Below, piece after piece: positions 20,181 through 49,117 of a stretch of DNA of 55,471 nucleotides (position 1 is the first letter of the stretch; every line of letters starts with the position of its first letter). Source of the DNA: a virus (Duplodnaviria > Caudoviricetes); the IMG/VR virus record IMGVR_UViG_3300044614_001468, positions 1-55,471 of that record; one strand, 5' to 3'. Under the pieces are notes generated by a model, which was not told where the DNA came from, did no database searches, and saw nothing but the letters and a program-made list of their open reading frames with translations. Position numbers and translations under genes: made by a program.

Positions 20181-20477
20181 TTATTGCTCAAAAGGCTCGC
20201 CGGGTTTTGCTTGAGCGTGCTCGGCAAAGCGTGCATAGGCGGCAAGATCGACGTAGTTATCAGGATGATAGACTCGCGTGGATCGTTGAACTTTGAACGC
20301 AACCATCATTAGCTCGACGATGTGCGGCGGGATTGCTGTTGGAAGTGTGATACCGTAGTGCTGTTGGAGAATGCCAGTCCAACTTAGGCCGATGTTGCGA
20401 TGGCTGTGGTGTGGCTCGCCATAGATCTGGCCGCGCTGTTGGATGGTTTCTGAGACTGTATCTTTATTTTGCTGCAT
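20181..20477 (-). CDS. DUF6378-like (nucleotide-metabolism-associated) protein
   Basis: RGQIYG.P...NI...W...M...K..R...DNYVDLAAY pattern. Confidence 0.7.
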   Translation of the reverse strand: MQQNKDTVSETIQQRGQIYGEPHHSHRNIGLSWTGILQQHYGITLPTAIPPHIVELMMVAFKVQRSTRVYHPDNYVDLAAYARFAEHAQAKPGEPFEQ

Positions 20478-21723
20478 AGTATTCAATGTTGTTTTCTTTG
20501 ACACGGCAGATTCTATCCATTGTGGTGAGGTCATCGAGGACTCTAGTGAGTTCATCGGGTGTTTTGAGTGATTGATAGAAACGAACGAAGATAGATTTCT
20601 TTGTAGATCTATGTGAGGTTTTTATAAAGCGCCAGATGTCTTCTGTGATCTTTGCGCTTTCGTTGCGGCCCATGCCGACGAATGGGATGTGCATATCCTT
20701 TTCAAGATTAGCGAGATGCGCTGTGGCTTTCTCTGCATCCTCTCTTGTCACGGTCATATCCAATGTCCGCGCGAAGTGTACGGCGAAGAGGATCTTCTGA
20801 TGATGAAGATTCTTGCGGCCGTAGTATTCGTCCAGCATTGGATGTTTGTTCGTGTGGACGAGATTAGGATGAAGTTCGAAGTGATGGTGGATGTATTCTT
20901 TGGCTTCGTCGTTCAGAATGACAGGTCCATAGAGCTTGTTAAGTTCACGAATGTAAGACTGCAGGCGAGCTTTCGCAGCCTTCTGTTCCTCCGAAAGCGG
21001 AGGAATGGAATATAAATGAAAACGCTTTTCGATCCCATATACGATGATCGTTCGAGCCATAAAACCGTCCGAGAGAATATCTTGATTCTGAAGACTTTGA
21101 AACTTTCCAAGCGTTGTGTTGCCCAAGAGACTGATGCACATATTTGTACAGAAGTCCGTGTCGCTGTGCTTAAGTTTTCGTACGTACTTTCTTCCACCGT
21201 TATAAGCTTCGAGAAGAAAGTCTGAAAGTTGTTCGGCATTTTTCTTAAAGATTGAGGTTAGTTCGTCGAGGATGAATACGAGAGAGCTGTGATGATAGGC
21301 TTTGCGGCGATTCTCGGAATCGACGTAGCGGTGCAAATACGCAACGCGCGAAGTCTCTTGCGTGAATTGCTCGAACGTCGTGCTGTTTGGGGCGATATAG
21401 ATAAGAGGCTGTCGGGCGCCTTTGCGGTTGTCTGAGGCATCTTCGCCGAGGAGTTCAGCGGCGAGATCATTCTCTGGAGTTTTGATCTCGGCGGGGATTT
21501 CTAGGAGTTCTTTCATCGGACTCGTAATGAGAGATTTACCCGCCGAAGCGGGTCCGATGAAAGCGATGTATTGATTCGGAAATACTGCGTGGAAGTCAAG
21601 GTCACCGAACCAGACGCGCCTTTGAAGGGCGGCGCCGATCATGAAATAGAAAGCAGCATCGACAAACGGCTGCGGGCTTTGTACGTCTTTTGTGTACAAA
21701 CACCAGTCTTCATATAGGCTCAT
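20464..21723 (-). CDS. P-loop helicase (DUF3987/YfjI-like), probable replicative helicase
   Basis: Walker A GPASAGKS, Walker B FILDE, GFMAR motif. Confidence 0.7.
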   Translation of the reverse strand: MSLYEDWCLYTKDVQSPQPFVDAAFYFMIGAALQRRVWFGDLDFHAVFPNQYIAFIGPASAGKSLITSPMKELLEIPAEIKTPENDLAAELLGEDASDNRKGARQPLIYIAPNSTTFEQFTQETSRVAYLHRYVDSENRRKAYHHSSLVFILDELTSIFKKNAEQLSDFLLEAYNGGRKYVRKLKHSDTDFCTNMCISLLGNTTLGKFQSLQNQDILSDGFMARTIIVYGIEKRFHLYSIPPLSEEQKAAKARLQSYIRELNKLYGPVILNDEAKEYIHHHFELHPNLVHTNKHPMLDEYYGRKNLHHQKILFAVHFARTLDMTVTREDAEKATAHLANLEKDMHIPFVGMGRNESAKITEDIWRFIKTSHRSTKKSIFVRFYQSLKTPDELTRVLDDLTTMDRICRVKENNIEYYAAK

Positions 21724-21937: not shown

Positions 21938-21974
21938 ACTGGGTAAAGCGGAGGGAGCTTTTCTTGGGCCACTG

Positions 21975-22967
21975 TTAGGCTAAGTCTCTCATGCCGTTAG
22001 GATTATCTTTTGAATACTTGCCCCAGTTCTTTCCGACTTGGGCCTCCGATTTCATCGTGAAGTTTATTCCGTCTCGGCCTGTGAGAGAAATGGCGAGGCA
22101 TTCTTGCATGAGCTTCGCCGTGTCAGTGACAATCCCATCTGGAACCAGCGCCAGAAAAGAGTCATGTTTATTGTTAATAGCTGGGAGTGTATTCTTAGGC
22201 CGCTCAGTGTTATAGCGGTTGACCGCGATATGTGTGATGCATCCCACGGTGGACTGAGGAACCCATGAGATGCCTTCCCTGATATAAGAGTCAGTAATAG
22301 TTCTCTCGAACCTGCGTGGATATCCAAACAGATTCCGGAGCTGACGGTTAGTTCTAATTTGAAATTCAATTTCATCTTGCCATTCTATGATTTCGGGGAA
22401 TAGGGACGCGAAGAAGCCGAGGAATGTTTTACATTCTTGAAGAGATAAAGTCAAAGTACCGTGACTTTGCTTGAGAGTCTGAAGCTGGAAGGTCCGCTCA
22501 CGCATTCTATAGGAGGAAGCGTGGCAGACCATCTTGCCGATCTTGTATTCTTTATCTGAGGATTTGATTGCTTTGTCGAGAGGTTTCCAATCTTTGTCTT
22601 GCTTGAGTTCTGTTGGGCTGAGAGATTTCCAATAGCTTGGACTTTTACCGGCGAGAGGCCATTCGTTCTGCATCTGCTCGCAGAAGATGTGAAGCGCGAT
22701 GAAGGTATGAGGTTTGATGCCGACGTTGAAGAGTTCTCTATAACGGCCCGGTCGTGTAAGGTTGGCGACGATAAGAGCTTCGGCGCCGCTTTGGTCGCAT
22801 TGGACGAATGTGTGGTTTGGAGGAGCTATGTAAATATCGAGAGCTTCCTTGTCGGGATTCTGGAGATTCGCTCCGTAGTCGCCTAGGAATTGACCGCTTG
22901 CTAGGCGAAAGCTTCCTGTGCCAGCGACCTTAAGTGAGGTCAGGCAATGGATGTGTGGAGTGGGCAT
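21975..22967 (-). CDS. polA: DNA polymerase family A, C-terminal (palm/fingers) subunit
   Basis: AGTGSFRLAS, NLQNP, motif A DQSGAE, motif B KMVCHASSY, PQST, motif C KHDS. Confidence 0.9.
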   Translation of the reverse strand: MPTPHIHCLTSLKVAGTGSFRLASGQFLGDYGANLQNPDKEALDIYIAPPNHTFVQCDQSGAEALIVANLTRPGRYRELFNVGIKPHTFIALHIFCEQMQNEWPLAGKSPSYWKSLSPTELKQDKDWKPLDKAIKSSDKEYKIGKMVCHASSYRMRERTFQLQTLKQSHGTLTLSLQECKTFLGFFASLFPEIIEWQDEIEFQIRTNRQLRNLFGYPRRFERTITDSYIREGISWVPQSTVGCITHIAVNRYNTERPKNTLPAINNKHDSFLALVPDGIVTDTAKLMQECLAISLTGRDGINFTMKSEAQVGKNWGKYSKDNPNGMRDLA

Positions 22968-24374: not shown

Positions 24375-25805
24375 TTAATATTCCCAAATCCATTGTTGAA
24401 ATCCTAGCATACCTTTCAGCTTAACCATACGACGCATCTCGAAGATCACATCAATAGCGACGTTCTTAGGATGCTTGAGTTTGATCTTATAGAGAGCATC
24501 CCCAGCGACACTCGGAGCGCCTTTGTCTGTTGTCTTTTCTGGTTTGTATTTTAGTTGTTCGTGTAGATAACGAACGACTTGATCCGGGCTGCCGGGATTA
24601 AGGTCGAAGCCGACGAGGATTTTTAGGATTCTATTTAACTGCTTATATCTTTCTTCACAGCGTCGGACGATGTATTGCCGCTTGACGGGATCAAAGTGCA
24701 TTCCGTGCAGTGACATGAAGGCGTAGTCTGCGAGAGATCGGCTGGCTTGATCGACAGAGTCTTGAAGTCCAGCGTCGTTTCGGCAGACTTCAATCTGACC
24801 ATAGTAAATTTCTCTGAGGACAATAACGTCTTTAACATTGTAAGCGCGGAGCTGCTCAAATTGTGCTCGATTGCGAGGATCAAAGTTCCCTGCTTCATCT
24901 TTATGGAAGGGTCTGTTGCTGTAAAGAGTGGCTTGATGTGCCAGAGATTTCTCGGCCTCAGGGAATATGCGATGCCCAGCGACCATGGTGTCATAGATGT
25001 CATGGCCGAATGGGATCTTATAGAAGGCGGCGAGGAAGCATAGGTCAAAGAGGGCGTTATGTATGACGACTCTTCTTTTCTTTAGCTCTCTTATGAAGCG
25101 CGCAAAGAAAACCACACCCACATTAAGATTGCCGCCCCAATCGTACACAGGGATAGAGTAAACAGGACTCTCTCCACAGGCGATGGCGAGACACGTAAGG
25201 GTGTTCGTCTTGGGGTGAGTCTCAATGTCGAAGAATATAGGACCGTCGTAGTCGAAGACACTTGTGCATTCGGCTGCTCTTTGACAGATGACGGTTTGTG
25301 GTTCAGGTTGAACTTTTTGGGGGTCATATGTTAGGAGTTTCTTGATGTCTTGTGCGAACCAAAAGCTGTAGTTACTGCGCTTCGTTGGGGATGTACTCTT
25401 GCCGTCGTCTTTATCTAGAATGTCTTCGCCGTCATTGTCTCCCTCCAAAGCGTCTTCCATGCCCCATGCGTCGACACAATCTTGAGGCCAGTAAGTAACG
25501 ATGTATTGGGTTTTATTTGGCGAGAGATAGACGACGCCGCGAAAGGCGTCTAGGGTTTTTCCTTTAGCTGCTGGTAGATAATCTAGGGCTTTGGCTCCGG
25601 CAAAGATGATCTTTGTGATGCCGCTTGGTTTGTTTGCGCCTTTGAAGAAGTCGTCGGCGAAAGTAATGAAAACGTTAGATGCGTCATCAAGATCAATACC
25701 ATGACGTACCAAAGTATCACGCACGAAGTCACCAGCGGGTCCGAGTAAGATCCCATTATTTTCTTTATCAAAGCGCGAAGGTCCATGGAGAACGAGGGCT
25801 ATCAT
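24375..25805 (-). CDS. polA: DNA polymerase family A, N-terminal subunit: degenerate UDG-like + 3'-5' exonuclease + thumb
   Basis: GILLGPAG and TYWP UDG-family-4-like remnants; Exo I DIET, Exo II HNALFD, Exo III YNVKD; thumb GMHFD, NPGSPDQV, R..KL. Confidence 0.85.
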   Translation of the reverse strand: MIALVLHGPSRFDKENNGILLGPAGDFVRDTLVRHGIDLDDASNVFITFADDFFKGANKPSGITKIIFAGAKALDYLPAAKGKTLDAFRGVVYLSPNKTQYIVTYWPQDCVDAWGMEDALEGDNDGEDILDKDDGKSTSPTKRSNYSFWFAQDIKKLLTYDPQKVQPEPQTVICQRAAECTSVFDYDGPIFFDIETHPKTNTLTCLAIACGESPVYSIPVYDWGGNLNVGVVFFARFIRELKKRRVVIHNALFDLCFLAAFYKIPFGHDIYDTMVAGHRIFPEAEKSLAHQATLYSNRPFHKDEAGNFDPRNRAQFEQLRAYNVKDVIVLREIYYGQIEVCRNDAGLQDSVDQASRSLADYAFMSLHGMHFDPVKRQYIVRRCEERYKQLNRILKILVGFDLNPGSPDQVVRYLHEQLKYKPEKTTDKGAPSVAGDALYKIKLKHPKNVAIDVIFEMRRMVKLKGMLGFQQWIWEY

Positions 25806-25963: not shown

Positions 25964-26482
25964 TTAGAAGTTATCGGCAAGCGGCGAGGCAGCGCCTTTG
26001 ACTTGAGAGAAGTCAAACTGGGTGTTGTAGCGTTTGATGATGGCCTCGCCATTCTCGTCGCGCTTGGCGAACTTGAGATCGCGGGAGTTGGAAGGATCGT
26101 CGCTGACATACTCAGGCTGCGACTGAACGAGCATGTTGAAGGCTTGGCCTTCGAGACTTTTCAGTGCATCAGAAACGTCAATGTCGTTGTAGTCTTCGGG
26201 CAGACCATCATACAGACCAGTCACTTGCAGCGGCGTGGCGAGAAGTTCCAGCGCAGAGTCAACGCCGTTCTTGTTCTCAAGCATGATGTACATGTTGCCC
26301 TTTGCGCCGAGGGTCTTATAGGTCGTACCGGCGGCGGTGGCGGTCTCGGGCGCAACGATCTCGCACTCACAGACAACCATCTTGAAACCCTTCGCGCTCT
26401 GGCGAGTCTCGGTCTTGTGGACGAGAACCTTATAGACGTTGGCGGGGATGAATCCGAGCTTGACTTCAGTACCTTTTTTCAT
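25964..26482 (-). CDS. Putative single-stranded DNA-binding protein
   Basis: IPANVY.V.V...E...SAKG..M pattern of phage OB-fold SSBs; follows exonuclease and Sak4-like genes; C-terminal F. Confidence 0.55.
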   Translation of the reverse strand: MKKGTEVKLGFIPANVYKVLVHKTETRQSAKGFKMVVCECEIVAPETATAAGTTYKTLGAKGNMYIMLENKNGVDSALELLATPLQVTGLYDGLPEDYNDIDVSDALKSLEGQAFNMLVQSQPEYVSDDPSNSRDLKFAKRDENGEAIIKRYNTQFDFSQVKGAASPLADNF

Positions 26483-26529: not shown

Positions 26530-26547
26530 GAGCTTTCTGTGGGCCAT
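26530..26547 (-). promoter_or_regulatory. Putative sigma-54 -24/-12 promoter
   Basis: aTGGCccacagaaaGCtc (GG-N10-GC), intergenic, upstream of the SSB-like gene. Confidence 0.5.
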
Positions 26548-30490: not shown

Positions 30491-30715
30491 TCACGGCTTG
30501 GCCTCCTTGGCTTTGTTTCTATTTTGATTGATGAAGCTAATTGGATTTGCTGAAAGCGTCTGCTTACCGCAATGGATGCATTTCCATTTTCTTTTAACAT
30601 TGAATGCAACGTCCCAGTGAGAATGTGAGCCATGGAAACTGTCGTTTAGCGGTTGCCAATAATGAGAACACGCAATTCCAAGAAACCGTTTGAGTATCTT
30701 TCCAATACAATTCAT
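30491..30715 (-). CDS. Small Cys/His-containing hypothetical protein
   Basis: CSH...CIHC; ends AKEAKP. Confidence 0.5.
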   Translation of the reverse strand: MNCIGKILKRFLGIACSHYWQPLNDSFHGSHSHWDVAFNVKRKWKCIHCGKQTLSANPISFINQNRNKAKEAKP

Positions 30716-30720
30716 TGCGC

Positions 30721-31089
30721 TCACAGCTTGGCCTCCTTGGCTTCGAGTGCTTCTGACGCTGTGTCGATTGCGTACCAGCAAGCGTCTATCAATGCTCGCT
30801 CGTTGTTGTCTCCGTTCCAGTATTCTCGAATGGACTCAAGAGACTCCTCCAGCCGCTTGATGCGGTCCTCTTGCTCGCGGATCTTGGTAGCCTGTGCATC
30901 GGCCATCCATTGCTCGCGCATGATCTTCAACACTTCGGCCGCTGTCTCTGTGGGTTTGAGATCTTCGGACACAGTGATACGACCGTCGGCGTGAATCGTT
31001 AGGAGTGCTTTGCCTAGCTTTTTCAATTGGATCATATTAGGTTCAATGCCGTCGAGGCTGAACTTATCTGGGATTAGTATGTCGTTCAT
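30721..31089 (-). CDS. Hypothetical protein
   Basis: Coiled-coil DRIKRLEE; ends AKEAKL. Confidence 0.6.
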   Translation of the reverse strand: MNDILIPDKFSLDGIEPNMIQLKKLGKALLTIHADGRITVSEDLKPTETAAEVLKIMREQWMADAQATKIREQEDRIKRLEESLESIREYWNGDNNERALIDACWYAIDTASEALEAKEAKL

Positions 31090-31093
31090 ATCT

Positions 31094-31933
31094 TTATTCT
31101 CCTTTATCATACTCCGGCAATTCAATCTCTCCAAGTTCTCTCTTAAGTAATAGATTACGCAACGCACGGACATTCCCAAAGGAGAATGTCTCGTCGCCGA
31201 AGTGTTCGCGCTCGCCAATAGGTGTCCAGTTTTCTTCTTCGATTATCGCCGAGGCCACACATCGGATTTCCTGCACGCCTCGTTGTTGTAATGAGAGAGT
31301 CTTCAGACCGAGTTCGTTAATGCGGAAGTATAGATCCTCACGGAAGCTTCCCTCTTTAACCATCTTGAGGAGATCTCTATTTGTAGCGAACACAAACCTA
31401 CATTGAATTGGCACAGGATCAACAGCTCCGACGGGCAAGACTGTCTTATCCTGCAAGACTCTCAATAACTTAGCTTGATGCGACAGGGGCAATTCGCCTA
31501 TCTCATCGAGGAAAGCAGTACCCTTGCCGACTGCTCTTAGGAAACCAACGTCGCCTCTTGATTTAGCACCAGTAAAAGCGCCGGGCATGTAGCCAAATAG
31601 TTCTGATTGGAATAGTGTGTCTGTCAAACCAGCCATGTTCATAGCCTTGAGAGGCTTTCGTTTGTGGGCAAGGATCCTTGCGATCAACTCCTTGCCTGTG
31701 CCCGATGGGCCTTCGATCAGGACGTTGTATCTCTGCAAGCTTTCTTCCGCATATGTCATCGCGGAGTTGAGCATCTTCTTCGTGGCAGGATCTTGCGTGG
31801 CATAGGACGAAGCGACATTGTGGATACTGTTCTCCTTCAATGCGTCGCCTGTGATCTTGAGGACATCCTTGCGGATGTTATCAAGGAAGCTGTCGGCGGC
31901 TGTGGTATTGAGGACGTTTGCGTGGATGTTCAT
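31094..31933 (-). CDS. Sigma-54-dependent transcriptional activator (bEBP AAA+ domain only)
   Basis: GPSGTGKE, SELFG, GAFTGA, FLDEIGEL, QAKLLRVLQ, ATNRDL, FREDLYFRI, GNVRAL; no receiver domain and no C-terminal HTH. Confidence 0.95.
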   Translation of the reverse strand: MNIHANVLNTTAADSFLDNIRKDVLKITGDALKENSIHNVASSYATQDPATKKMLNSAMTYAEESLQRYNVLIEGPSGTGKELIARILAHKRKPLKAMNMAGLTDTLFQSELFGYMPGAFTGAKSRGDVGFLRAVGKGTAFLDEIGELPLSHQAKLLRVLQDKTVLPVGAVDPVPIQCRFVFATNRDLLKMVKEGSFREDLYFRINELGLKTLSLQQRGVQEIRCVASAIIEEENWTPIGEREHFGDETFSFGNVRALRNLLLKRELGEIELPEYDKGE

Positions 31934-32112
31934 TTTTTCTTGGGTTTATTTTTTCTCTTACTATATAAAGACGGACCGGGATCTCTTAGCTTATAAGACA
32001 TGATCGCCTTGTGCGCGGCGGCGAGTTCATCTCTATCAAGATACTCCTCGTCGACTGATCCTGCCTTATGTTTAGGCTTAAACTGTTCACCTTGTTGATG
32101 AAAGCGACTCAT
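31930..32112 (-). CDS. Small hypothetical protein
   Basis: Overlapping start/stop with both neighbours. Confidence 0.6.
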   Translation of the reverse strand: MSRFHQQGEQFKPKHKAGSVDEEYLDRDELAAAHKAIMSYKLRDPGPSLYSKRKNKPKKK

Positions 32113-32396
32113 TTTTTTAGCGTTAGTTTTCTTAGCTCACACTCTAGCTGGAAGATTCTATTGTGTTGTTTGTTGACGAGGTTAGTTAGCTCACTGATCT
32201 TGCGCTCATAGTATTCATACTTTGACGGCGTGCGCTGGATGTTTGAGATCAGGCCGCGCGAGACTCCAAAGTGCTCTGCGATTTTAGATTGTGATAGCTC
32301 TGGATGCTTTTGTATAAAGCTTTTGATCTTCTTCTTCTCTTCGATCGAGAGATAATAATTTTTTCTCTTTAGGTCTTGTATTTTTCTTTCGTACAT
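32109..32396 (-). CDS. HTH DNA-binding protein with C-terminal coiled coil
   Basis: LSQSKIAEHFGVSRGLISNI. Confidence 0.8.
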   Translation of the reverse strand: MYERKIQDLKRKNYYLSIEEKKKIKSFIQKHPELSQSKIAEHFGVSRGLISNIQRTPSKYEYYERKISELTNLVNKQHNRIFQLECELRKLTLKK

Positions 32397-32438
32397 GATA
32401 GTATAGGGTTAATGAATAAAGAATCAAGTAGTGAAGAA

Positions 32439-34613
32439 TCATGCCGCCTGTGCCTGAGGTTCGTCGTCCTCATCGTCATCATCCTCGTCCGTCTCGATCA
32501 CGCCCGTGGACTCAGCGGCGGCGAGATCTTCTTCTGTTAGTTTGACGGCGGTCGCTCGATCACGAAGAGCTTTCTCTAGTTCGCCAGCGAGATCGACGTT
32601 TGAGGAGCCAATGGCGTCGACAGACTTAAGCTTTCGTGCAAGCTTCGGCGCCATGTGATCGCTGAGGATTGTGCCTTCTGGGACATAGATGTCTTGCGTC
32701 GTGTCGGTTAGAGTAGTGATACGCACGCAGCGACCAAGAGCCTGTGCAAATTCCTCTGCCCAATAGGTCATCGTGCTCATGACACTACGCGGCCGAGTGT
32801 GGTTATAGCGATGGTCGAGACTGATACCTGTACCTCCTGAGGAGAGAGTATAGATACAGAACTCAGTCTCTCCGTTGAGGAAAGCTTGCACGTTCTCGTG
32901 TCGTTCCTTCTGGTTCTGATTGTGAAGCTTCATCTCTCGAAGCTTCTCATTCCTCTGGGCGAATGCATCCTTTGTCATCTCTCGGAAGATACGTTCGGAG
33001 GTGTACTTGATGCCCTTGTGGAAGGCGCGGAATTCTTCCTTCGTGATCCCGATGTCATCCGCTTTAGGCTTGCGGGCTTCGTCTGGATTATCGAGAATCC
33101 ACATGCCCATCTTGGCTGCGATCTCTGCCGCGCGTGTTTCTGGTAAGAGATCCTCGGGCTTGATCTCTCGATTGCCGCCCCAGATTAGAGAGATCTTTTG
33201 TTTAGTAAGACCTTTGCTCTTGAAATAGTCAGACTCACAGAGCTTCATCACTAGTTCCTTGAGAGTCTCTGTGAAGCGAATAGCAATGACAGGCGCATAG
33301 CCGTTTTGATGGGCATGAATTGCGTCGGCGACCCATGTGTCTACGGTTGCAAGCTCGGCCGCTCGGGCCATGACCATGAAGGCAACCATGACTTGACCTT
33401 GTGGATCTATTGAGCGACCTGTGCGTTCGAGAGCTTCAAGATAATTCTTCATCGCGTTCTTGAGCATCGCTTTGTTCGCGGGGTCAGTGATCTCGAAGAG
33501 CTTGACTTTGTTAAGAGCCTTGACTTTCTGAGGATCGCCGGGCGGCTTGACGAAGCGGTCGCCGATCGCAGCGCCCCAGCGTTCGAGAGCGGCGGCGTTA
33601 GCTTGTCGAGGATCTGCGCCGAGTGTGAGAGTGCGTGCGAATTCAGGAAAGGTTTCTCTCGTCAAGGGTCGAGCGCCATATTGTAAACGCATCGCGATAG
33701 ACATGAACATCGTGTCCCATACTGTCACGGCGGGCGTCGCGGAAGTAAAGACCCAAGTGATTTCTGGGAACTGAAGGAAGGCTTCGAGATATTTTGTACG
33801 CTTAGACTTCTCCTTCTTGATCTCCTGACACTCGTCTAGGATGATTAGCTTGGGCGCAGCAGACGCTGGCAGGTTAAAGCGTATGACGCTTGTAGCTTGG
33901 CCGAAGACTTCTACTGTTTCGGTCTTGAAGAAGTTTCTGTTTTTCGCAGAGAAGACTTCGTTATAAGACCACACGTCCACAGCGAGTCCGACAGATTCGA
34001 GACCTAGTTTCTTTAGGGTATCGCGGAAGTCAAGCACGACGGACTTTTTGGTGATGATTAAGATAGGCGGAAAGAGTCCGAGAAAGTTACAGAACTTCTG
34101 AGGGTCATGCTTTTGTAGCCACAGCGCGAGACCCGCTGCGATCCAGCTCTTACCTTTGCCTGTGCCGAGTGGAACAAGAGAGCCATTGAGGTTCTTGTTA
34201 TACAATACATCAAGCAGGGCGGCGATAGCTTTCTTCTGCTGAGGCTTGAACTCTAGCCCGTTGGGAAGCTTGATGTCGATTGTGCTGTATGTGCGCTTCT
34301 CTCTCAAGGCAAGTTCTTCCGCGAGACGAAGAGCTTCCTTTTGCTGGCGCGCTGGGGCTTGATTAACCCAGCCCTGAAGGAAGCCGAGCAATGTAGCATA
34401 GTCGAGCTTGACTGTTGGGATTACGGCGAGAGATAGTTCCTTCTGCAGAAAGTCCCAATCAAATGGCTCTCTGCGATACAGATCAGTAAGCTTTTTAGCT
34501 TGCGCCCGGGCGGTCGTGAGGGCGGTCTGTTGAAGCCTGTCTTCTTTGCTTGTGTATTGAGGTTCCGTTTGGACAGGTTTCTTTATCCCCGAAGGAGTAG
34601 CGAATATGTTCAT
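32439..34613 (-). CDS. Superfamily 2 helicase
   Basis: GTGKGKS, DECQ, SAT, SGGTGISL, QALGRCVR; acidic tail. Confidence 0.85.
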   Translation of the reverse strand: MNIFATPSGIKKPVQTEPQYTSKEDRLQQTALTTARAQAKKLTDLYRREPFDWDFLQKELSLAVIPTVKLDYATLLGFLQGWVNQAPARQQKEALRLAEELALREKRTYSTIDIKLPNGLEFKPQQKKAIAALLDVLYNKNLNGSLVPLGTGKGKSWIAAGLALWLQKHDPQKFCNFLGLFPPILIITKKSVVLDFRDTLKKLGLESVGLAVDVWSYNEVFSAKNRNFFKTETVEVFGQATSVIRFNLPASAAPKLIILDECQEIKKEKSKRTKYLEAFLQFPEITWVFTSATPAVTVWDTMFMSIAMRLQYGARPLTRETFPEFARTLTLGADPRQANAAALERWGAAIGDRFVKPPGDPQKVKALNKVKLFEITDPANKAMLKNAMKNYLEALERTGRSIDPQGQVMVAFMVMARAAELATVDTWVADAIHAHQNGYAPVIAIRFTETLKELVMKLCESDYFKSKGLTKQKISLIWGGNREIKPEDLLPETRAAEIAAKMGMWILDNPDEARKPKADDIGITKEEFRAFHKGIKYTSERIFREMTKDAFAQRNEKLREMKLHNQNQKERHENVQAFLNGETEFCIYTLSSGGTGISLDHRYNHTRPRSVMSTMTYWAEEFAQALGRCVRITTLTDTTQDIYVPEGTILSDHMAPKLARKLKSVDAIGSSNVDLAGELEKALRDRATAVKLTEEDLAAAESTGVIETDEDDDDEDDEPQAQAA

Positions 34614-34614
34614 G

Positions 34615-34914
34615 TTATAGTAGTTTTGAGATCACTTCTTCAGCGTTCTTGAATCCGTATGCGGTTGGCGTTTTGCTTATAAGACTTACGTATTCGCCGA
34701 ATACGATACTCTCGGCCGTGGGTTTGTCAAGTTGCACATAGGCTTTGTTGATGTTGTCGCGTTGATTAAGCAAGGGCGTTAGCTTTTTCTGCAGAGCAAG
34801 CATCTTATCCTCCAGCTGTTGGCGTATCAAGACGTTCTTCTTGGTGGCTTTGTCCATTGCTTTCTTCAGGCGCAGGGATTCTTTGATTGTCTTCTGTTGC
34901 AGGGCTTTGTTCAT
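34615..34914 (-). CDS. Hypothetical coiled-coil protein
   Basis: Operon packing. Confidence 0.6.
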   Translation of the reverse strand: MNKALQQKTIKESLRLKKAMDKATKKNVLIRQQLEDKMLALQKKLTPLLNQRDNINKAYVQLDKPTAESIVFGEYVSLISKTPTAYGFKNAEEVISKLL

Positions 34915-35485
34915 AGTTTAGGATGTTTCTTGTGTCTACGATTTTTAGTACTTCTTCGAGAGGGAAATAGCAGTTGATGTTGTTGAATGCGCCTTTGAGG
35001 GCGTCGTTGAGCTGTCGAGATTTGTTAAGATAGATCTCTTCGCCTTGTGAAGTGATCGCGATGGCGACCTCTGTTGCCTTCTGTCTGTTGAAGAGCTTAG
35101 CTTTAGCGAGTGCATCACTGATCATCTCTACACGGAGATCTTCTGCTTTCTTCCGGATGTAGGATATGTCAGAGGCAAGGTGGTTTGCACGAAGGATTCT
35201 TCTGCGCTCGTCGCTGAGGTTCCAATCGGTGGCATCCCAGATGACAGAGTAAGAGAATCCGTCTTCGTTGATTCTCTGAATATGGAGATGCTCACTTGCG
35301 CAGTGAGCCTTAACCCAGTCGGCTGTTTCATTTGTAGCAACAATCGCATGGGCAAGATTATTCCCGCCAGTTCGGCGGATGAAATGCCCTCGCTCTGCAT
35401 CGACATGACAAGAGCACGATGGGAAGAGCAATCCCCAGAGTTCTTGTGGAGTGATTTCTTGGACGTCTTCATTTTGAGGAGGCAT
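34805..35485 (-). CDS. Hypothetical protein
   Basis: Start overlaps the end of rpoN. Confidence 0.6.
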   Translation of the reverse strand: MPPQNEDVQEITPQELWGLLFPSCSCHVDAERGHFIRRTGGNNLAHAIVATNETADWVKAHCASEHLHIQRINEDGFSYSVIWDATDWNLSDERRRILRANHLASDISYIRKKAEDLRVEMISDALAKAKLFNRQKATEVAIAITSQGEEIYLNKSRQLNDALKGAFNNINCYFPLEEVLKIVDTRNILNYEQSPATEDNQRIPAPEESNGQSHQEERLDTPTAGG

Positions 35486-36764
35486 AGACTTTACGGAGAT
35501 GTGATGGTTGAATACCTAGTTCTGCTCTGTATTTAGCGATTGTGCGCCGGGCGATTGTGTTCTTGAGGAGTGTTACAATGTCCTCATCGCTTAGTGGGCG
35601 AGACTTGTCTTCGCATGAGATGATCTCTGCGATTTGATTTTTTATTGAGAGGTTACTTTGCATGGTGTTTTGTTCATGGTTTACGATAGCACTGGTGAAG
35701 AAAAATCTTAGTTCATATGTACCGCGCGGAGTAGAGATGTATTTGTTACACACGGCTCTGCTCACGGTGGTCTCGTGGATCTCACAGACCGTCGCGATCT
35801 GAGCCATCGTGAGCGGCTTGAGATCTTTGATCTGGCCGCTGCGGAAGAAGTCTTGTTGATAGTCTACGATCGCATTAGACACGCGGCCGAGAGTAGACTG
35901 GCGCTGCATGATAGATCGAATGAGAAACTTTCCCATCTTTACTTTCTCACGCACGAACTCCCGCTCGGCGGGCTTGAGCTTGTGGAGATAGCTTAGAACG
36001 TGATCGTTGATCTTGTAGACAGGAAGTTTCTCGTTCGGGATATCTATTGTGCCGTCGTCGCGCAGAAAGATCTCTGCGTCTTTCGGCGTGTGCGTTGAAG
36101 ATGCGAACTCTGAAGCGGGATTATAGTTTAGTTTAGAGAGTTGCTTGTACAATAATTCGATCGTGGTAAAGGTCTCGTTGTATTTCTTCGCGAGAATGGG
36201 GATTTGGCGTCGAGTGAAGAGATCTTCGTCTTGTTGAAGGATTTGATAAGCTAATGAAGAAGAATTTAATTGAAGACATAAGCAATCTGCAAGACTCAAA
36301 GCGCCGAGGCCGCGTGGTTCGAGCGTGCGGATAAATCGCAGAGCTTTTCTCTGTTCTGTCGTGAGAATGTCTGGATCATGTAGGAAATATCCTCGCTCGT
36401 TAAGAAGAGATATGACAGAGAGATCATGACCGGCGAGAGATAATTCTTTCTCTAAGTATTCTTCTAGTGTCTCATCTCGGCCGGGATTATTCTCTAGCGG
36501 ATATTGCTCTTTGTATGATGGAACACTATCCGAGAGAGAAGTCCACTGCATATCCGCCGGGAGTTCAGCTTTGTCGTTCTCGTAGGATATGTCTTCTTCT
36601 GCTTGATTATTGTCAAGCATCTCGACGCATGGATTGTCGTTGATGAACGACTCCATGATAGATCGCAGGTCACAAAGTGGAGCTTGAAGAAGCGCGAGAG
36701 ACTGTTGCAGTTGTGGACTCAGTATCAAAGATTGAGTCTGCTGCGTGGAGATAGAAATTTTCAT
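35469..36764 (-). CDS. rpoN: RNA polymerase sigma-54 factor
   Basis: Region I QQTQSLILSPQLQQSLALLQAP, EPRGLGA.SL..CL.LQL, LKPLTM, HETTVSRA..NKY, ELRFFF, PLSDEDI, RpoN box ARRTIAKYR. Confidence 0.97.
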   Translation of the reverse strand: MKISISTQQTQSLILSPQLQQSLALLQAPLCDLRSIMESFINDNPCVEMLDNNQAEEDISYENDKAELPADMQWTSLSDSVPSYKEQYPLENNPGRDETLEEYLEKELSLAGHDLSVISLLNERGYFLHDPDILTTEQRKALRFIRTLEPRGLGALSLADCLCLQLNSSSLAYQILQQDEDLFTRRQIPILAKKYNETFTTIELLYKQLSKLNYNPASEFASSTHTPKDAEIFLRDDGTIDIPNEKLPVYKINDHVLSYLHKLKPAEREFVREKVKMGKFLIRSIMQRQSTLGRVSNAIVDYQQDFFRSGQIKDLKPLTMAQIATVCEIHETTVSRAVCNKYISTPRGTYELRFFFTSAIVNHEQNTMQSNLSIKNQIAEIISCEDKSRPLSDEDIVTLLKNTIARRTIAKYRAELGIQPSHLRKVYASSK

Positions 36765-36796: not shown

Positions 36797-36814
36797 GAGC
36801 CTAAAGTGTGCCAA
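36797..36814 (-). promoter_or_regulatory. Putative sigma-54 promoter of rpoN
   Basis: tTGGCACactttagGCtc, 35 nt upstream of the rpoN ATG and downstream of a terminator. Confidence 0.55.
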
Positions 36815-36853
36815 GTTTTGGCATATGTTGGATGCCAATACTTGGAACACCTC

Positions 36854-36894
36854 AAAGAAAAAGCCTCTGTCGGATGTTACTCCAACAGAGGCTT
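36854..36894 (-). terminator. Intrinsic terminator
   Basis: aagcctctgt...acagaggctt stem with T-run on minus strand. Confidence 0.8.
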
Positions 36895-36955
36895 CGTGAT
36901 TTAGACTTGATTACTTCTTCTCGATCACGGGATCGAGTAGATTGTTGTCTTAGAC

Positions 36956-37600
36956 TTAGACAGTTTTCTTCTTGGCTTCGCGCTTGGCCTTCGCGCTGGC
37001 GAGTTCGTTGGCCTTCGCGAGGAGCTGCGCCAGAGAGGCGATAAGGTTAGCCTGCTTGGCCACGGCGGCATCCTTGTCGGACACGCCCAAAGAGCGAGCA
37101 GTGTCGTCGTTCCACTCGCCAGCGAGAGCGAACACAATCGAGCCGATCTCAGAGCGAATGCCTTCGATCTTCTTGAGGACAGACTTTTCGGTCTCACGGT
37201 CGGCGCTGACGCCGTAGATGAAGGCGGCGAAGTAGTCGGGAGTGTTGCCCTTGCTGAGATAGGCTTCAGAAGCGTCTTCGGCGATGTCGAGGAGTTCAGC
37301 CTGTACGAGATCACTCAGAGCATTAGAGATGCGCTTCGTTTCAGTGACAGAGCCGTCTTCGTTCTTGACCTTGGTCACGTGCTCGGTCAGGATCTCAGCG
37401 AGAGCTTCGCCGCGCTTGATGTAGTACTGGAGATCGCTAACGGCCAGAATCGGAGACTGAAAAGAGACAACACGCTCCGGAGACTTAGCAGTCTTGCGGA
37501 CATGACGCTCGTTGGTGGCGAACTGAGGGTTGCCGTTGCTGTCGCTCTGGAAGACAGATCCAGCGAAGGAGGCAACGAGTTCGAGGTTCTTAGTGCTCAT
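36956..37600 (-). CDS. Hypothetical protein (214 aa), probably highly expressed
   Basis: C-ending codon bias like the capsid gene; own promoter and terminator; basic C-tail. Confidence 0.75.
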   Translation of the reverse strand: MSTKNLELVASFAGSVFQSDSNGNPQFATNERHVRKTAKSPERVVSFQSPILAVSDLQYYIKRGEALAEILTEHVTKVKNEDGSVTETKRISNALSDLVQAELLDIAEDASEAYLSKGNTPDYFAAFIYGVSADRETEKSVLKKIEGIRSEIGSIVFALAGEWNDDTARSLGVSDKDAAVAKQANLIASLAQLLAKANELASAKAKREAKKKTV

Positions 37601-37707: not shown

Positions 37708-37725
37708 AAGCTTTTGAAATGCCAA
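37708..37725 (-). promoter_or_regulatory. Putative sigma-54 promoter
   Basis: tTGGCAtttcaaaaGCtt directly after terminator 37741-37791; nearly identical to the terS site. Confidence 0.65.
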
Positions 37726-41559: not shown

Positions 41560-41622
41560 TCTTGTTTATAAATAGCCTTTAACACTCTCAAAACACAACA
41601 AAACGCTATTTACAAAGAGCTT

Positions 41623-41757
41623 CAATGCATAGAACTGCTATGCATCACAGCGCAATCCCTTGCACTTCTATCCCTAAGACTTCTATCCCTAAGACTCCAA
41701 TGCATCACTCTACTATGCATCTCTCTGCTATGCATCACAGTCCAATGCATCCCCGAC
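41623..41757 (+). repeat. Array of nine 15-bp imperfect repeats (C[AT]ATGCATC.. / C[AT]ATCCCT..)
   Basis: Exact 15-nt period, units aligned by eye. Confidence 0.9.
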
Positions 41758-41856: not shown

Positions 41857-41874
41857 ATGGCATTCTAAAAGCTT
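41857..41874 (+). promoter_or_regulatory. Putative sigma-54 late promoter of the terminase operon
   Basis: aTGGCAttctaaaaGCtt; the -12 C lies 15 nt before the terS ATG. Confidence 0.65.
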
Positions 41875-41886
41875 TGATCGTTTTAT

Positions 41887-42429
41887 ATGAGTGACTTAAT
41901 GATGAGAAATCAGATATTAGGACTAAGGCGCGCAGGGATGAGTTGTGAAGAGATATCTGCCGCGCTTGAGGTTGACCCTGTAGTGGTAAAGTTGGCCTTA
42001 GAAGCGACAGGTGGGTCTGTAGCCTTAAGAAAAGAAGCCCTCAAAGAGGAAGACATAACCGACGATGTCTCTGAACAAGAGGCCAAAGAGATGATGGGCA
42101 TCATCAAGAACATAGCCCGTGACGAAGACTCTGGCGTCTATGCCCGACTAAACGCGGCTAAGTATGCCCATGGCGCCAAGCGCGGTTATCACAAACGCCA
42201 TCTCGATCTTAACGTGGGCTCGGGCGAATTGCTTCTCAAGATCAACGAAGCCTACGCCTCAGCATCTATGCGCGCCCGCGCGGCTCTTAGCGGCCAATCT
42301 CTCACCGCTAAAGAAATCACCATCGAGGCCCCAATAACCGTAGAGGCGCCCTTAGCCGCAGAACTCCCTTCTGATCACACTACTCAATCAGAGCCTGCGG
42401 CGCCGAAACCCCGGCCCTTTAAGATATGA
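41887..42429 (+). CDS. terS: Putative terminase small subunit
   Basis: N-terminal HTH (GMSCEEISAAL), RLNAAKY; overlaps the terL start. Confidence 0.6.
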   Translation: MSDLMMRNQILGLRRAGMSCEEISAALEVDPVVVKLALEATGGSVALRKEALKEEDITDDVSEQEAKEMMGIIKNIARDEDSGVYARLNAAKYAHGAKRGYHKRHLDLNVGSGELLLKINEAYASASMRARAALSGQSLTAKEITIEAPITVEAPLAAELPSDHTTQSEPAAPKPRPFKI

Positions 42430-44195
42430 CAAAGACTCCAATCTCCGCTGATACACTCAAACTTGTTCAAGCCCGTCGCGCACTTGAGGCAGAGAAAGCT
42501 GCAGAAAAAGAACGTGCAAAAGCAGCCAAAAAGAAAGCTGTAGAAGTTCCGCCTAAAGCGCCTGACGCTGTCGTAGTAGAGCCGCCTGCAAAAAACAAAC
42601 GCTACATTGCGCATCAGATCGACACCCCGGCGGATTTACTCCTCGCCCATCGACCTGATCTGAAGCTCTATAAATGGCAAGCAGAAACTCTATTTCAACT
42701 TGCAGGATATACCGACATCAATGATCTCGATCTGCCTAAAACTCGACCAACCGACAAGACGCCGTTATACTACAATCTTGTCGCGGCCAACGGAAGCGGA
42801 AAAGATCAGGTCGTTATTAGCTCCTTCGCTGTCTGGTTTTGCCTTTCCAAAGTCCGTTCTCGATGCGTCATTACGTCATCTTCGTACGAGCAGCTTAAGG
42901 ATCAGACGTATAAGTACATAAAGAACATCTGTGAAGAGATCAATGTCTCGTATGGCCGTAAGGTATTTGAGATCGTTGAGTTCTTGATTACCTGTAATGA
43001 CACCGGCAGCGAGATCAAATGCTTCGTGACAGATGACCCCGGCAAAGCCGAAGGGCGTCACCCGTTCGACGAACCCGGCGCCGAGATGGCCGTGATCATT
43101 AATGAAGCTAAATCTATCACCGATGAAATGTTCCAAGCCTTCTCACGCTTTACAGGTTATAACTACTGGCTTGAAATCTCTTCGCCCGGCAAGAATAGCG
43201 GCCATTTTTTCAAGCGTTGTACGCGTGCAAAGCGCACATTCCCAGATCCTCTCGAAATAGGCGAATTCTACTGGCGTCGTGTCACGGCATTCGACTGCCC
43301 TCATCTTCTTGGCAAACACATCGAGCATCTTAAGGACGAACACGGTGAACAATCCCTCATCTATCGAAGTCAAGTATTGGCTGAGTTTACCTCACTCGAC
43401 GAAGCCGCATTTATACCTTCAACACTATTCGAAAACTACCCAGCAAATCCACCGCGTACATTTGGATTGCCCAATCGAGCGGGCATCGACTTATCACTCG
43501 GCGGCGATGAAACTGTGGCGTACTTCTTTATCCATGGAAAACTCCACCTACGAACAACAAAGATTCGTAACGAGGCAATTCTCCACAATCAGATCATCAG
43601 TTGGATTAAAGAATTTAACGTCACGCCCTCTGAGGTACGCATTGACGATGGCGGTCTGGGACGACCTATCGTGCAGCGAGTGCAAAATGCAGGTTATGAC
43701 GTCGTGCCGATACGAAACGAAGCCCGATCAACCAACCCAAATTTCTACAAAAACAGAGGCGTTGAAAACTGGAATCGTATTAAGCGTGCTCTTGAAGACC
43801 GTGCGTTTCCTGCACTTAATGACGACCTTACTCGCCAACAGTTATGTACGCGTGGCTTCTCTGTTAAAGGGATCGTCACGCTCTTAGAGCCTAAAGCAGA
43901 AATGCGCTCGCGTGGTTTGTCGTCGCCTGATCGCGCAGACGCTCTTGCGCTTTGTTTTGACAGTGTTCCTCTTGGAGCTTTCAAAGAAGAAACATTACAC
44001 ACAACTGAACCAGAAAGTCGTTTCTTAGAACTCATAGATCTTAACAAAAAAGGCCTCTTAACGCAGAACGAAGCTCAAGAACTCACACTTCTTTGGGGTC
44101 AGATGACACACAGACCGGCACAGGAAACGCTAAATTCGCCTGAGCCGCGTGAAGAATTACGTGGTCAATATCATCAATTCGTAACCGCTAAATAA
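42426..44195 (+). CDS. terL: Terminase large subunit
   Basis: AANGSGKD Walker A, IINEAK Walker B, ISSP, GIDLSLGGD, IDDGGLG, SPDRADAL. Confidence 0.9.
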   Translation: MTKTPISADTLKLVQARRALEAEKAAEKERAKAAKKKAVEVPPKAPDAVVVEPPAKNKRYIAHQIDTPADLLLAHRPDLKLYKWQAETLFQLAGYTDINDLDLPKTRPTDKTPLYYNLVAANGSGKDQVVISSFAVWFCLSKVRSRCVITSSSYEQLKDQTYKYIKNICEEINVSYGRKVFEIVEFLITCNDTGSEIKCFVTDDPGKAEGRHPFDEPGAEMAVIINEAKSITDEMFQAFSRFTGYNYWLEISSPGKNSGHFFKRCTRAKRTFPDPLEIGEFYWRRVTAFDCPHLLGKHIEHLKDEHGEQSLIYRSQVLAEFTSLDEAAFIPSTLFENYPANPPRTFGLPNRAGIDLSLGGDETVAYFFIHGKLHLRTTKIRNEAILHNQIISWIKEFNVTPSEVRIDDGGLGRPIVQRVQNAGYDVVPIRNEARSTNPNFYKNRGVENWNRIKRALEDRAFPALNDDLTRQQLCTRGFSVKGIVTLLEPKAEMRSRGLSSPDRADALALCFDSVPLGAFKEETLHTTEPESRFLELIDLNKKGLLTQNEAQELTLLWGQMTHRPAQETLNSPEPREELRGQYHQFVTAK

Positions 44196-47646: not shown

Positions 47647-47664
47647 CTGGCATATCGTTAGCAA
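47647..47664 (+). promoter_or_regulatory. Putative sigma-54 promoter of the major capsid gene
   Basis: cTGGCAtatcgttaGCaa in the intergenic region. Confidence 0.7.
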
Positions 47665-47818: not shown

Positions 47819-49117
47819 ATGCCAGCAACATGGGACTTGCCGCGTTCAAGCGGCCTTTGGAATCAACAGGACATCGCTAACTACAACCGCCTTCCGATCT
47901 GGATGGCTATGCAGCAGACCAAGAAGATGCAGATGTGGTCGCGCTGGAAGGACATGTTTCCCAAGATCAAGTGGAAACAGAACATGGGTGACATCCTGCA
48001 GGGTGTGATCGCGGAGAACTCCCCGATCGTCAATCAGGTGCATCGCCCGAAGAACATCACCGAGTTGCCGCTCAAGACCGTGGCGAGCACTTGGGAGCGT
48101 ACGAACCAGAGCCGCGTCAAGCGTCACAACTTCGAATCTCCTCAGTTCAACTTCCTCCCCAGCTTCCGCGATTTCCGCACGAAGCAGCTGAAGTTCGCCG
48201 CTGAAGATCTCTCGAAGCAGATCGCTGTCGGCTATGATTTGTTCACGCGTGACAACGTGTTTCAGAACTCGCCGTTCGTGTACGTTGTGGGTAACACCAC
48301 CTCTGGCGAATTGCCCTTGATCAACGCCCCGGCCGCTTTGCCGACCGATACCAGCGCGATCAAAGACACCGCTTGGGTTGCCGCCACGTCTGCCAAGATT
48401 GGCTCTGACGACAACGGTTTCCTCTCCTATCGACAGATTCAGGCCGTCGCTTCCTACGCGAAGAACTACCTGATGATTCCTCCGATGGAAGGAATGCAGA
48501 GCGGCGCTCCTGCTGACAATGAAATGTCGAAGGGCAAGTATATCCTCGTCGGTGGTTCTGAGATCTATGAAGGTCTCGCCTTTGATGAGCACGTGCTGAA
48601 CACCAAGCCGCTCGCGATGAACCTCCTGAATAGCTCCTTCCAAGGCGCTATCGGGCCGAACATCATCTTCCGCGAAGAGTTCTATCCTCTGCGTTTTGCT
48701 GAGGATGGCACTATGCCCGCGCCCGAGATCGAGCTGTTGCTGCCTGACAGCGGCTACTCGACCCCGAACGCTACTCGTCAGACTGTCGTCAATCCTGCCT
48801 ACGCGAGCGCCGCTATCGGCGTGGCGTTCTTGATTGGCTATAATCCCTACGAGCAGATCGACGTGGGTCCGCCTCCCAGCGAGTTCACTGGCGCTTCCAT
48901 CAATGGCAAGCGTTTTAATCAGCTCACTTGGAACGGTGAAGTTCGCCTGACCGACAACGTGCTGGTCAACTACGGATCGAACAATCTCGATACCAACAAG
49001 TACGGTGAGTTCCTGCAGCTGATCGCCGACACCGTGCTCGGCATCATCGGCAATACTCCTCGTAACGTCATCCCCATCATCTATCGTCGTCAGATCGCTC
49101 CGTCGCTGTTTGTGTAA
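47819..49117 (+). CDS. Major capsid protein
   Basis: 432 aa, strong codon bias, position after scaffold. Confidence 0.75.
   Translation: MPATWDLPRSSGLWNQQDIANYNRLPIWMAMQQTKKMQMWSRWKDMFPKIKWKQNMGDILQGVIAENSPIVNQVHRPKNITELPLKTVASTWERTNQSRVKRHNFESPQFNFLPSFRDFRTKQLKFAAEDLSKQIAVGYDLFTRDNVFQNSPFVYVVGNTTSGELPLINAPAALPTDTSAIKDTAWVAATSAKIGSDDNGFLSYRQIQAVASYAKNYLMIPPMEGMQSGAPADNEMSKGKYILVGGSEIYEGLAFDEHVLNTKPLAMNLLNSSFQGAIGPNIIFREEFYPLRFAEDGTMPAPEIELLLPDSGYSTPNATRQTVVNPAYASAAIGVAFLIGYNPYEQIDVGPPPSEFTGASINGKRFNQLTWNGEVRLTDNVLVNYGSNNLDTNKYGEFLQLIADTVLGIIGNTPRNVIPIIYRRQIAPSLFV

Follow-up and report, generated by a model that had tools for sequence, protein, structure and literature searches.

We analysed a 55,471 bp stretch of DNA (in the following the window) that represents one whole IMG/VR virus record, IMGVR_UViG_3300044614_001468, with a CheckV completeness of 100%. 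On its minus strand we characterized a locus that encodes a complete sigma-54 factor (RpoN) together with a minimal bacterial enhancer-binding protein (bEBP). The two genes lie on the same strand at a distance of 3.5 kb:

35469..36764, minus strand: rpoN, complete sigma-54 of 431 aa, identified by Pfam, a full-length structural match, alignment and the ratio of non-synonymous to synonymous substitution rates (dN/dS)
31094..31933, minus strand: minimal bEBP of 279 aa with the AAA+ core only, identified by Pfam, PDB matches, invariant motifs and dN/dS

The phage RpoN carries all three domains of a sigma-54 factor. Region I was matched by Sigma54_AID (PF00309, 2.2e-11, residues 5-49), the core-binding domain by Sigma54_CBD (PF04963, 4.5e-18, residues 92-248) and the DNA-binding domain by Sigma54_DBD (PF04552, 5.3e-50, residues 269-425). 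The Leu/Gln motif of Region I, LSPQLQQSLALLQAP, lines up with that of cellular RpoNs. Over its entire length (residues 2-425) the protein could be aligned to residues 2-474 of the E. coli sigma-54 of solved holoenzymes with an E-value of 5.9e-44. An alignment of the window RpoN with 12 relatives (alignment A2) showed an intact helix-turn-helix (HTH) motif, HETTVSRAV, and an intact RpoN box, ARRTIAKYR, within which the residues A-R-R-T and A-K-Y-R were invariant. The phage protein is short: its Region II is small, and directly before the RpoN box it lacks 5 residues that cellular RpoNs have. It matched none of the 38,880 PHROG families. By all sequence criteria that we tested it belongs to the sigma-54 family as an ordinary member. 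Pairwise dN/dS values were 0.10-0.14 for rpoN against three relatives and 0.06-0.08 for the bEBP gene against two relatives, both being rough because dS exceeded 1 in these comparisons. Both genes are under purifying selection.

For the bEBP, Sigma54_activat (PF00158, 7.7e-50, residues 47-210) was the sole Pfam family matched. Residues 44-262 align with NtrC1 AAA+ constructs (E-value 4.7e-35), and the solved AAA+ domains of NtrC1, ZraR, FleQ, FlrC and PspF were matched with E-values down to 1.4e-35. The protein contains a Walker A motif (GPSGTGKE), the GAFTGA motif at residues 118-123, a Walker B motif (DE at 143-144) and a sensor II motif (GNVRAL). Within an alignment of 22 sequences (alignment A1) the GAFTGA residues G118, F120, T121 and G122 were invariant, as were G75, G78-E82, D143-E144, R198, R204, N254 and R256, which we take to belong to Walker A and B, the arginine fingers and sensor II. 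Beyond the aligned AAA+ lid only 17 residues remain, which leaves no space for a C-terminal DNA-binding HTH; in agreement, the Pfam search found neither HTH_8 nor any other domain there. About 46 residues precede the AAA+ core. They matched no family, so that an N-terminal regulatory (sensor or receiver) domain was not seen either. The only PHROG family matched by the bEBP is annotated as ‘unknown function’. Judged by its motifs and alignments, the protein is an ordinary member of the AAA+ activator family from which just the two optional parts, sensor and HTH, are missing. Without an HTH it would work like FleT or PspF(1-275) and unlike a classical enhancer-bound activator.

A previous reading of this DNA (the sequence-only reading) had described a full RpoN with Region I, HTH and RpoN box and, 3.5 kb away in the same arm, a bEBP with all hallmark motifs including GAFTGA. 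The hidden Markov model searches that it had proposed agree with this description, with Sigma54_AID, Sigma54_CBD and Sigma54_DBD matching RpoN and Sigma54_activat matching the bEBP. It is further confirmed by the alignment to E. coli sigma-54, the invariant motif residues and the coordinates of the open reading frames (ORFs).

Between rpoN and the bEBP gene lie five close-packed genes, among which three pairs overlap. For the last two of them and the bEBP gene, start and stop codons overlap. Upstream of rpoN a further gene and a terminator-like hairpin are found:

36956..37600, minus strand: u214 (214 aa), highly conserved gene upstream of rpoN
36860..36895, minus strand: intrinsic terminator-like hairpin with a 15-bp stem and a T-run, after u214 and just upstream of the promoter-like site P_rpoN; conserved
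34805..35485, minus strand: u226, ORF with conserved synteny in all relatives and, without rpoN, in the sister clade
34615..34914, minus strand: u99, ORF with the same synteny as u226
32439..34613, minus strand: SNF2/ResIII helicase (Pfam) with the same synteny as u226
32109..32396, minus strand: HTH95, 95-aa HTH protein, clade-specific small gene upstream of the bEBP gene
31930..32112, minus strand: u60, clade-specific small gene directly upstream of the bEBP gene

The linkage of rpoN and the bEBP gene was followed in related viral contigs. A scan of IMG/VR with the window RpoN provided 12 loci with 75-99% identity, and a second scan with an RpoN alignment increased this number to 20. The order u214 - rpoN - u226 - u99 - SNF2 helicase - HTH95 - u60 - bEBP was found in all 20 RpoN loci, apart from L109, which had no u60 match, and from contigs that start inside or just before rpoN and thus carry no u214. 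Conversely, 28 loci contain a bEBP that is at least 92.8% identical to that of the window. Twenty of them have rpoN, and the other 8 hit the contig end inside or before the helicase gene, such that rpoN is present in every clade locus (20/20) reaching its position. The survey of co-occurrence in viral databases that had been suggested along with the sequence-only reading thus found both genes in the same operon in all 20 of these related loci. A large protein search provided more than 100 close RpoN clusters on contigs of up to ~50-74 kb. The region occurs in lake-water metagenomes, with 24 runs and studies among those listed. Logan contigs of four lake runs cover 27-30 of 30 bins, in pieces of at most 1265 nt that are too short to bridge the gene junctions. 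In INPHARED the window had no nucleotide match. The relatives obtained there by tblastn were rejected: all were below 60% identity (listed: 28-49% for the bEBP and 24-34% for RpoN), and their records look like host contamination or whole bacterial assemblies. According to these results there is no cultured relative.

The genes of the window are organized in two arms. The minus-strand arm (~41.2 kb down to 20.2 kb) contains small early-looking genes, the rpoN-bEBP locus and a phage replication module with PHROG matches to an exonuclease, a Sak4-like annealing protein, a two-part family A DNA polymerase, an ATP-dependent ligase and a primase-like protein. It also encodes a pyrimidine-dimer glycosylase. 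The plus-strand arm, which runs from 41.9 kb to the end and continues from 1 to 20.1 kb, contains the virion genes, among them tail-fibre and beta-helix matches. Here, ORF 47819-49117 (plus strand) is similar to viral clusters including Phage_capsid_3 (Atlas score 0.97, a lead and not a proof). ORF 42426-44195 (plus strand) is similar to viral clusters of which some members carry Terminase_6N or Terminase_6C (Atlas score 0.98, likewise only a lead). Based on virion and replication hallmarks on a complete genome, and on relatives with direct terminal repeats, the gene content identifies the window as a tailed phage (Caudoviricetes-like). Terminal repeats were not detected in the window record itself.

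Promoter-like sites with the geometry of sigma-54 promoters were found in both arms. Six of them follow the pattern TGGCMY-N5-WRGCW, and a seventh, weaker candidate follows a looser pattern:

36798..36813, minus strand: P_rpoN, TGGCAC-N5-AGGCT, ends 33 nt before the rpoN ATG and heads the rpoN...bEBP operon
37709..37724, minus strand: P_u214, TGGCAT-N5-AAGCT, before u214 (36956..37600); conserved across clade A, the clade of the window
26531..26546, minus strand: TGGCCC-N5-AAGCT, located 4 nt behind the Sak4-like gene, with ORF 25964..26482 starting 48 nt further on; conserved
21956..21971, minus strand: TGGCCC-N5-AAGCT, 3 nt after the C-part of polA, upstream of the primase-like gene 20464..21723
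41858..41873, plus strand: TGGCAT-N5-AAGCT, candidate late promoter immediately in front of ORF 41887, which is followed by the terminase-like gene 42426..44195
47648..47663, plus strand: TGGCAT-N5-TAGCA, candidate late promoter in front of the capsid-like gene 47819..49117, starting 21 nt behind the gene before it; also present in L005
28585..28601, minus strand: weaker candidate, cGGCAC-N5-TCGCT, in the gap that precedes the exonuclease gene

All six sites of the stricter pattern are intergenic and oriented toward the next gene. One of them stands before ORF 25964..26482, which is followed by the DNA polymerase genes. Relatives with a 73-99% identical RpoN carry the sites at corresponding positions, while the five spacer bases differ, leaving GG-N10-GCT as the constant core. 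In particular, P_rpoN is conserved in 17 of 17 aligned relatives with a varying spacer. Between the terminator and the rpoN start, TGCCAA-N3-TTGGCAY...GCTC is the only long conserved stretch of the upstream alignment. At the site before ORF 41887 the core GG..GCTTT is kept in all eight aligned sequences, with the -14 base being A in four and T in four. At the position of the weaker candidate, relatives carry TGGCTT-N5-TAGC. Three of the six sites begin only 3, 4 and 21 nt after the upstream gene. An enhancer would find no intergenic space there, which fits an activator that has no DNA-binding domain. We thus regard these sites as putative cognate promoters with a -24 GG and a -12 GC element that stand before phage genes.

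Given the genes and their motifs, their linkage, the selection acting on them and the conserved promoter-like sites, we consider it likely that the phage brings along a sigma-54 of its own and an AAA+ activator that is constitutively active and needs no enhancer, and that the two together drive its middle and late genes. How core polymerase is bound, how the activator acts from solution, how the loop feeds back and in which order the genes are turned on is inferred as follows. The phage RpoN would bind the host core RNA polymerase and dock as closed complex on the GG-N10-GC promoters. Its targets would be rpoN itself, u214, the recombination and replication genes, the packaging operon and the capsid gene. 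The bEBP would assemble into a ring and touch Region I of sigma-54 from solution via its GAFTGA loops, such that ATP hydrolysis would open the closed complexes at the phage promoters. With rpoN and the bEBP gene in one operon behind such a site, the system would form a self-amplifying switch for the middle and subsequently for the late genes. The first molecules of both proteins could be made through read-through from early transcription or, initially, with the help of host sigma-54. Activation from solution has a precedent in the isolated AAA+ domain of DctD, for which PMC3844500 reports activation of nearly all Salmonella sigma-54 promoters.

Several observations weigh against this interpretation. 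First, the -14 base of the sites is mostly A or G and not the usual T; the sigma-54 consensus at -12, as quoted in PMC12316311, is TTGC or TTGCT with T at -14. Second, the textbook pattern TGGCAC-N5-TTGC (with up to 2 mismatches) is not enriched in the window, with 48 matches versus 56 expected. Third, for TGGCMY-N5-WRGCW 6 matches were found versus 0.84 expected and 0 of 100 shuffles reached 6, while this pattern was defined after inspecting the sites, such that the shuffle test is biased in its favour and position and conservation are the stronger arguments. Fourth, rpoN and the bEBP gene both stand behind a promoter that needs both products, after a strong terminator, which leaves the priming of the loop unexplained. 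Furthermore, a virion-arm protein of 1698 aa (15023-20119, plus strand), for which searches in Pfam, PHROG and PDB sequences gave no relative, may be a divergent ejected enzyme or virion polymerase. That no T7-type polymerase was found in the window counts in favour of the interpretation, but the search with PF00940 was run without positive control. Finally, promoters of this type stand at the same places in a sister clade that lacks rpoN. The phage RpoN may hence be dispensable or have only a supplementary role.

The last point is best seen in the wider family of the activator. The window bEBP belongs to a family of AAA+-only proteins of 272-303 aa, for which a scan of IMG/VR with the family alignment confirmed at least 178 viral contigs, many of them 45-62 kb long. 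The best 80 of the 178 loci were kept. For the more distant loci (36-61% bEBP identity), 50 whole records drawn from the 52 kept loci (L054-L105) were searched for Sigma54_DBD. The domain was found in none of the 50, of which 25 are at least 90% complete, although the same search does find the window's rpoN. Like the window, these ~50-kb phages carry the minimal bEBP beside an SNF2 helicase together with -24/-12-type sites. In nine RpoN-less loci that were inspected, the SNF2-bEBP neighbourhood with exonuclease and polymerase recurs. They differ from the window by the missing rpoN and by most -12 elements being nearer to the canonical sequence: many loci have sites of the form TGGCAYG-N4-TTGCT or ATGCT, and in a good share of them such a near-canonical site lies just downstream of the bEBP gene. 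Sigma-54-dependent transcription hence looks like a group-wide habit of the SNF2-bEBP phages.

The nearest RpoN-less clade consists of L055, from a record of 49.8 kb that is complete and has terminal repeats, and L056, with a bEBP that is 59-61% identical to that of the window. In L055 u214 and u226 are only 167 bp apart, and the gap contains a TGGCAC-N5-AAGCT site. This sister clade thus has no rpoN but a promoter of the same type (WAGCT at -12) in the corresponding place, while in the clade of the window rpoN sits exactly between the counterpart promoter and u226. From its position rpoN therefore appears to have been inserted downstream of a sigma-54-type promoter that already existed. Neither L055/L056 nor a second RpoN lineage (clade B, see below) has HTH95 or u60.

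An alternative explanation is that the promoters are mainly read by host sigma-54 together with the phage bEBP. The phage rpoN would then only boost the supply or permit growth in hosts with little, no or incompatible sigma-54. The RpoN-less phages with their -24/-12-type sites, above all the sister clade, speak for such a back-up function. So does the faster divergence of rpoN compared to the bEBP gene among relatives (75-99% versus 93-100% identity). On the other hand, rpoN is kept under purifying selection in all 20 clade members that cover the site, and the second lineage keeps rpoN too. We judge a mere back-up function rather unlikely; it differs from a phage-encoded sigma-54 switch in degree only. 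Since sister phages without RpoN share the promoter type, the phage sigma is probably not strictly private, and host sigma-54 can probably read the phage promoters as well. Of the private sigma-54 and activator pair for the middle and late programme that the sequence-only reading had proposed, the pair itself, its linkage, the selection and the conserved promoter-like sites before middle and late genes are supported, while the term private is not. The phage sigma may raise the supply, free the phage from host regulation or widen its host range.

The second lineage (clade B) comprises three viral loci with an RpoN of 487-488 aa that is 34-35% identical to that of the window and is encoded between exonuclease-like and polymerase genes. 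Its complete record (L114 / L123; 52,003 bp, terminal repeats) encodes a 282-aa bEBP with GSFTGA directly after the SNF2 gene. When five other viral RpoN records (one of this second lineage and four others) were searched for the activator domain, only the second-lineage record had it. Two of the four others are flagged as proviruses, and their RpoN may be host flank.

In a search of representatives at 50% identity the phage RpoN formed a separate cluster. The next representative, P0121 (431 aa), was 42% identical and was not found in IMG/VR, while cellular RpoNs were 31-44% identical. A FastTree phylogeny of RpoN was calculated from 162 rows, comprising 23 locus rows and those 139 of the 149 representatives P0121-P0269 that have 400-560 aa; the fragment L121 as well as L116, L021, L023, L025, L026 and P0003 were left out. 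Clade A and P0121 grouped with a support of 100 and were joined to clade B with a support of 91, which is not decisive. All three lie inside a group of support 98 that also holds a representative whose 90% cluster includes Rubritalea (Verrucomicrobiota). One of the best local cellular RpoN matches was from Limisphaera, which also belongs to the Verrucomicrobiota. For the host this provides a weak lead towards Verrucomicrobiota. The tree is compatible with one as well as with two captures of rpoN.

Alternatively, RpoN and an always-on bEBP might chiefly activate the host sigma-54 regulon, or draw core polymerase away from sigma-70 and thereby shut off the host. An AAA+ domain without DNA binding activates sigma-54 promoters indiscriminately according to PMC3844500, such that host sigma-54 genes would be switched on as a side effect. 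Host manipulation as the chief role would leave the conserved promoter sites before the phage's own genes unexplained, and we consider it improbable.

The idea that the locus is misassembled or recently captured host DNA without a role for the phage draws on a 4358-bp contig in a Phycisphaerales metagenome-assembled genome that encodes a 99% identical RpoN, and it is very unlikely in view of the identical synteny in 20 independent viral contigs, nearest cellular RpoNs of just 33-44% identity, dN/dS values far below 1 and a GC content of 0.47-0.50 at 30-38 kb that equals the flanking DNA. This short contig was the only close copy among one genome each of 185,579 species, none of which contained a prophage copy. 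Phycisphaerales were rejected as host, since the assembled genome's own RpoN is only 26% identical, and the contig was taken as mis-binned. Misassembly, which the sequence-only reading had named as its possible failure, is thus contradicted by the same synteny in many independent lake assemblies and by the lack of a prophage copy in the 185,579 genomes.

To our knowledge, gene control by sigma-54 and its ATPase activators is considered exclusively cellular. Phages are known to supply sigma-70-type factors, polymerases or small modifiers. Among these, the sigma-70-family factors T4 gp55 and SPO1 gp28 and gp33/34 redirect host core polymerase to middle and late promoters with no ATPase needed. 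The sigma factor of the window would likewise be supplied by the phage, but sigma-54 is unrelated to the sigma-70 family, of which region 2 (Sigma70_r2) was not found in the window. Our full-text literature searches found no description of a virus-encoded sigma-54 or bEBP. The sequence-only reading had known of no characterised example, in agreement with these searches and with the missing RpoN family in PHROGs.

With the bacterial sigma-54/bEBP systems (E. coli or Klebsiella sigma-54 with PspF, Aquifex NtrC1) the phage system shares the sigma-54 domains, the AAA+ core with GAFTGA and the GG-N10-GC geometry. In contrast to these systems it is virus-encoded, its short RpoN is at most ~44% identical to any cellular RpoN, its activator has neither a sensor nor a DNA-binding domain, and the -14 base of its promoters is not the usual T. 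Among activators, PMC7175178 and PMC3162934 single out FleT of Rhodobacter (Cereibacter) sphaeroides as the only bEBP known to lack both other domains, and PMC7277832 describes it as acting in a hetero-oligomer with the DNA-binding FleQ. FleT and the engineered DctD AAA+ domain, which in PMC3844500 works from solution, resemble the phage bEBP in consisting of the AAA+ core alone. Unlike FleT, the phage form is a whole family found in at least 178 viral contigs. Sigma-54-type promoters are also used by the Pseudomonas phage YuA, which PMC10914365, citing Ceyssens et al. 2008, gives as dependent on sigma-70 and sigma-54. In that account YuA relies on the host factor, and its statement on YuA mentions no phage rpoN or bEBP.

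A virus that supplies sigma-54 and its activator would, if true, add a new class of phage transcription strategy, and AAA+-only activators, with FleT once called the sole example, would be common in viruses. More tentatively, and with somewhat less than even confidence, we propose that sigma-54 governs the middle and late genes in a whole group of ~50-kb lake and environmental phages that has so far not been described. An ancestral minimal, enhancer-free activator would hijack host sigma-54, and at least two lineages would have captured their own rpoN. The result would be the first sigma-54 switch encoded entirely by a virus, consisting of sigma, ATPase and 16-bp promoters. It would amplify itself and might be portable from one host to another. 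It may also tolerate a relaxed -12 element, by which it could be partly insulated from the host regulon. Such a three-part module could potentially serve as an orthogonal, tightly off/on expression switch. RpoN-bearing and RpoN-less sister phages, which otherwise share their gene order, would provide a natural experiment for asking why a host factor becomes virus-encoded.

A set of repeated half-sites was additionally found at the rpoN promoter:

36809..36838, no strand assigned: three half-sites of the form TTGGCA, arranged as TTGGCAT-N7-ATGCCAA-N3-TTGGCAC, that overlap with the -24 element of P_rpoN

Their inner palindrome is invariant in 17 relatives and missing from the same promoter of the RpoN-less sister clade. 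The half-sites may be an operator for a dimeric regulator, with HTH95 as candidate, or a docking array for sigma-54. A sigma-70-like promoter before HTH95 was considered as conserved primer of the bEBP and rejected, since it occurs only in the window and its two nearest relatives and in 0 of 12 others inspected.

Upstream of the operon, u214 has a sigma-54-type promoter and a strong terminator to itself, together with a conserved leader of ~110 nt. Its structural model (pLDDT 80, the predicted local distance difference test) has a beta-rich N-terminal half and a long helical C-terminal half. The model had no PDB or BFVD match at E <= 0.001 and only SSB-like rows near E = 1. The predicted structure of u226 reached a pLDDT of 59.

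Just downstream of the bEBP gene, at 30512-30844, contigs of all four independent lake runs skip ~320-330 nt, with unlike loose ends on both sides. This stretch looks like a variable cassette. Within the replication module the family A DNA polymerase is split into two parts (24375..25805 and 21975..22967, minus strand), between which an ATP-dependent ligase gene and a gene with a ferredoxin-like PHROG match are located. Finally, the 0.6-kb non-coding region between the two arms contains at least six YWATGCATC-like copies at 41620-41750, 110-240 nt upstream of the candidate late promoter at 41858. These copies could be origin iterons or binding sites of a regulator.

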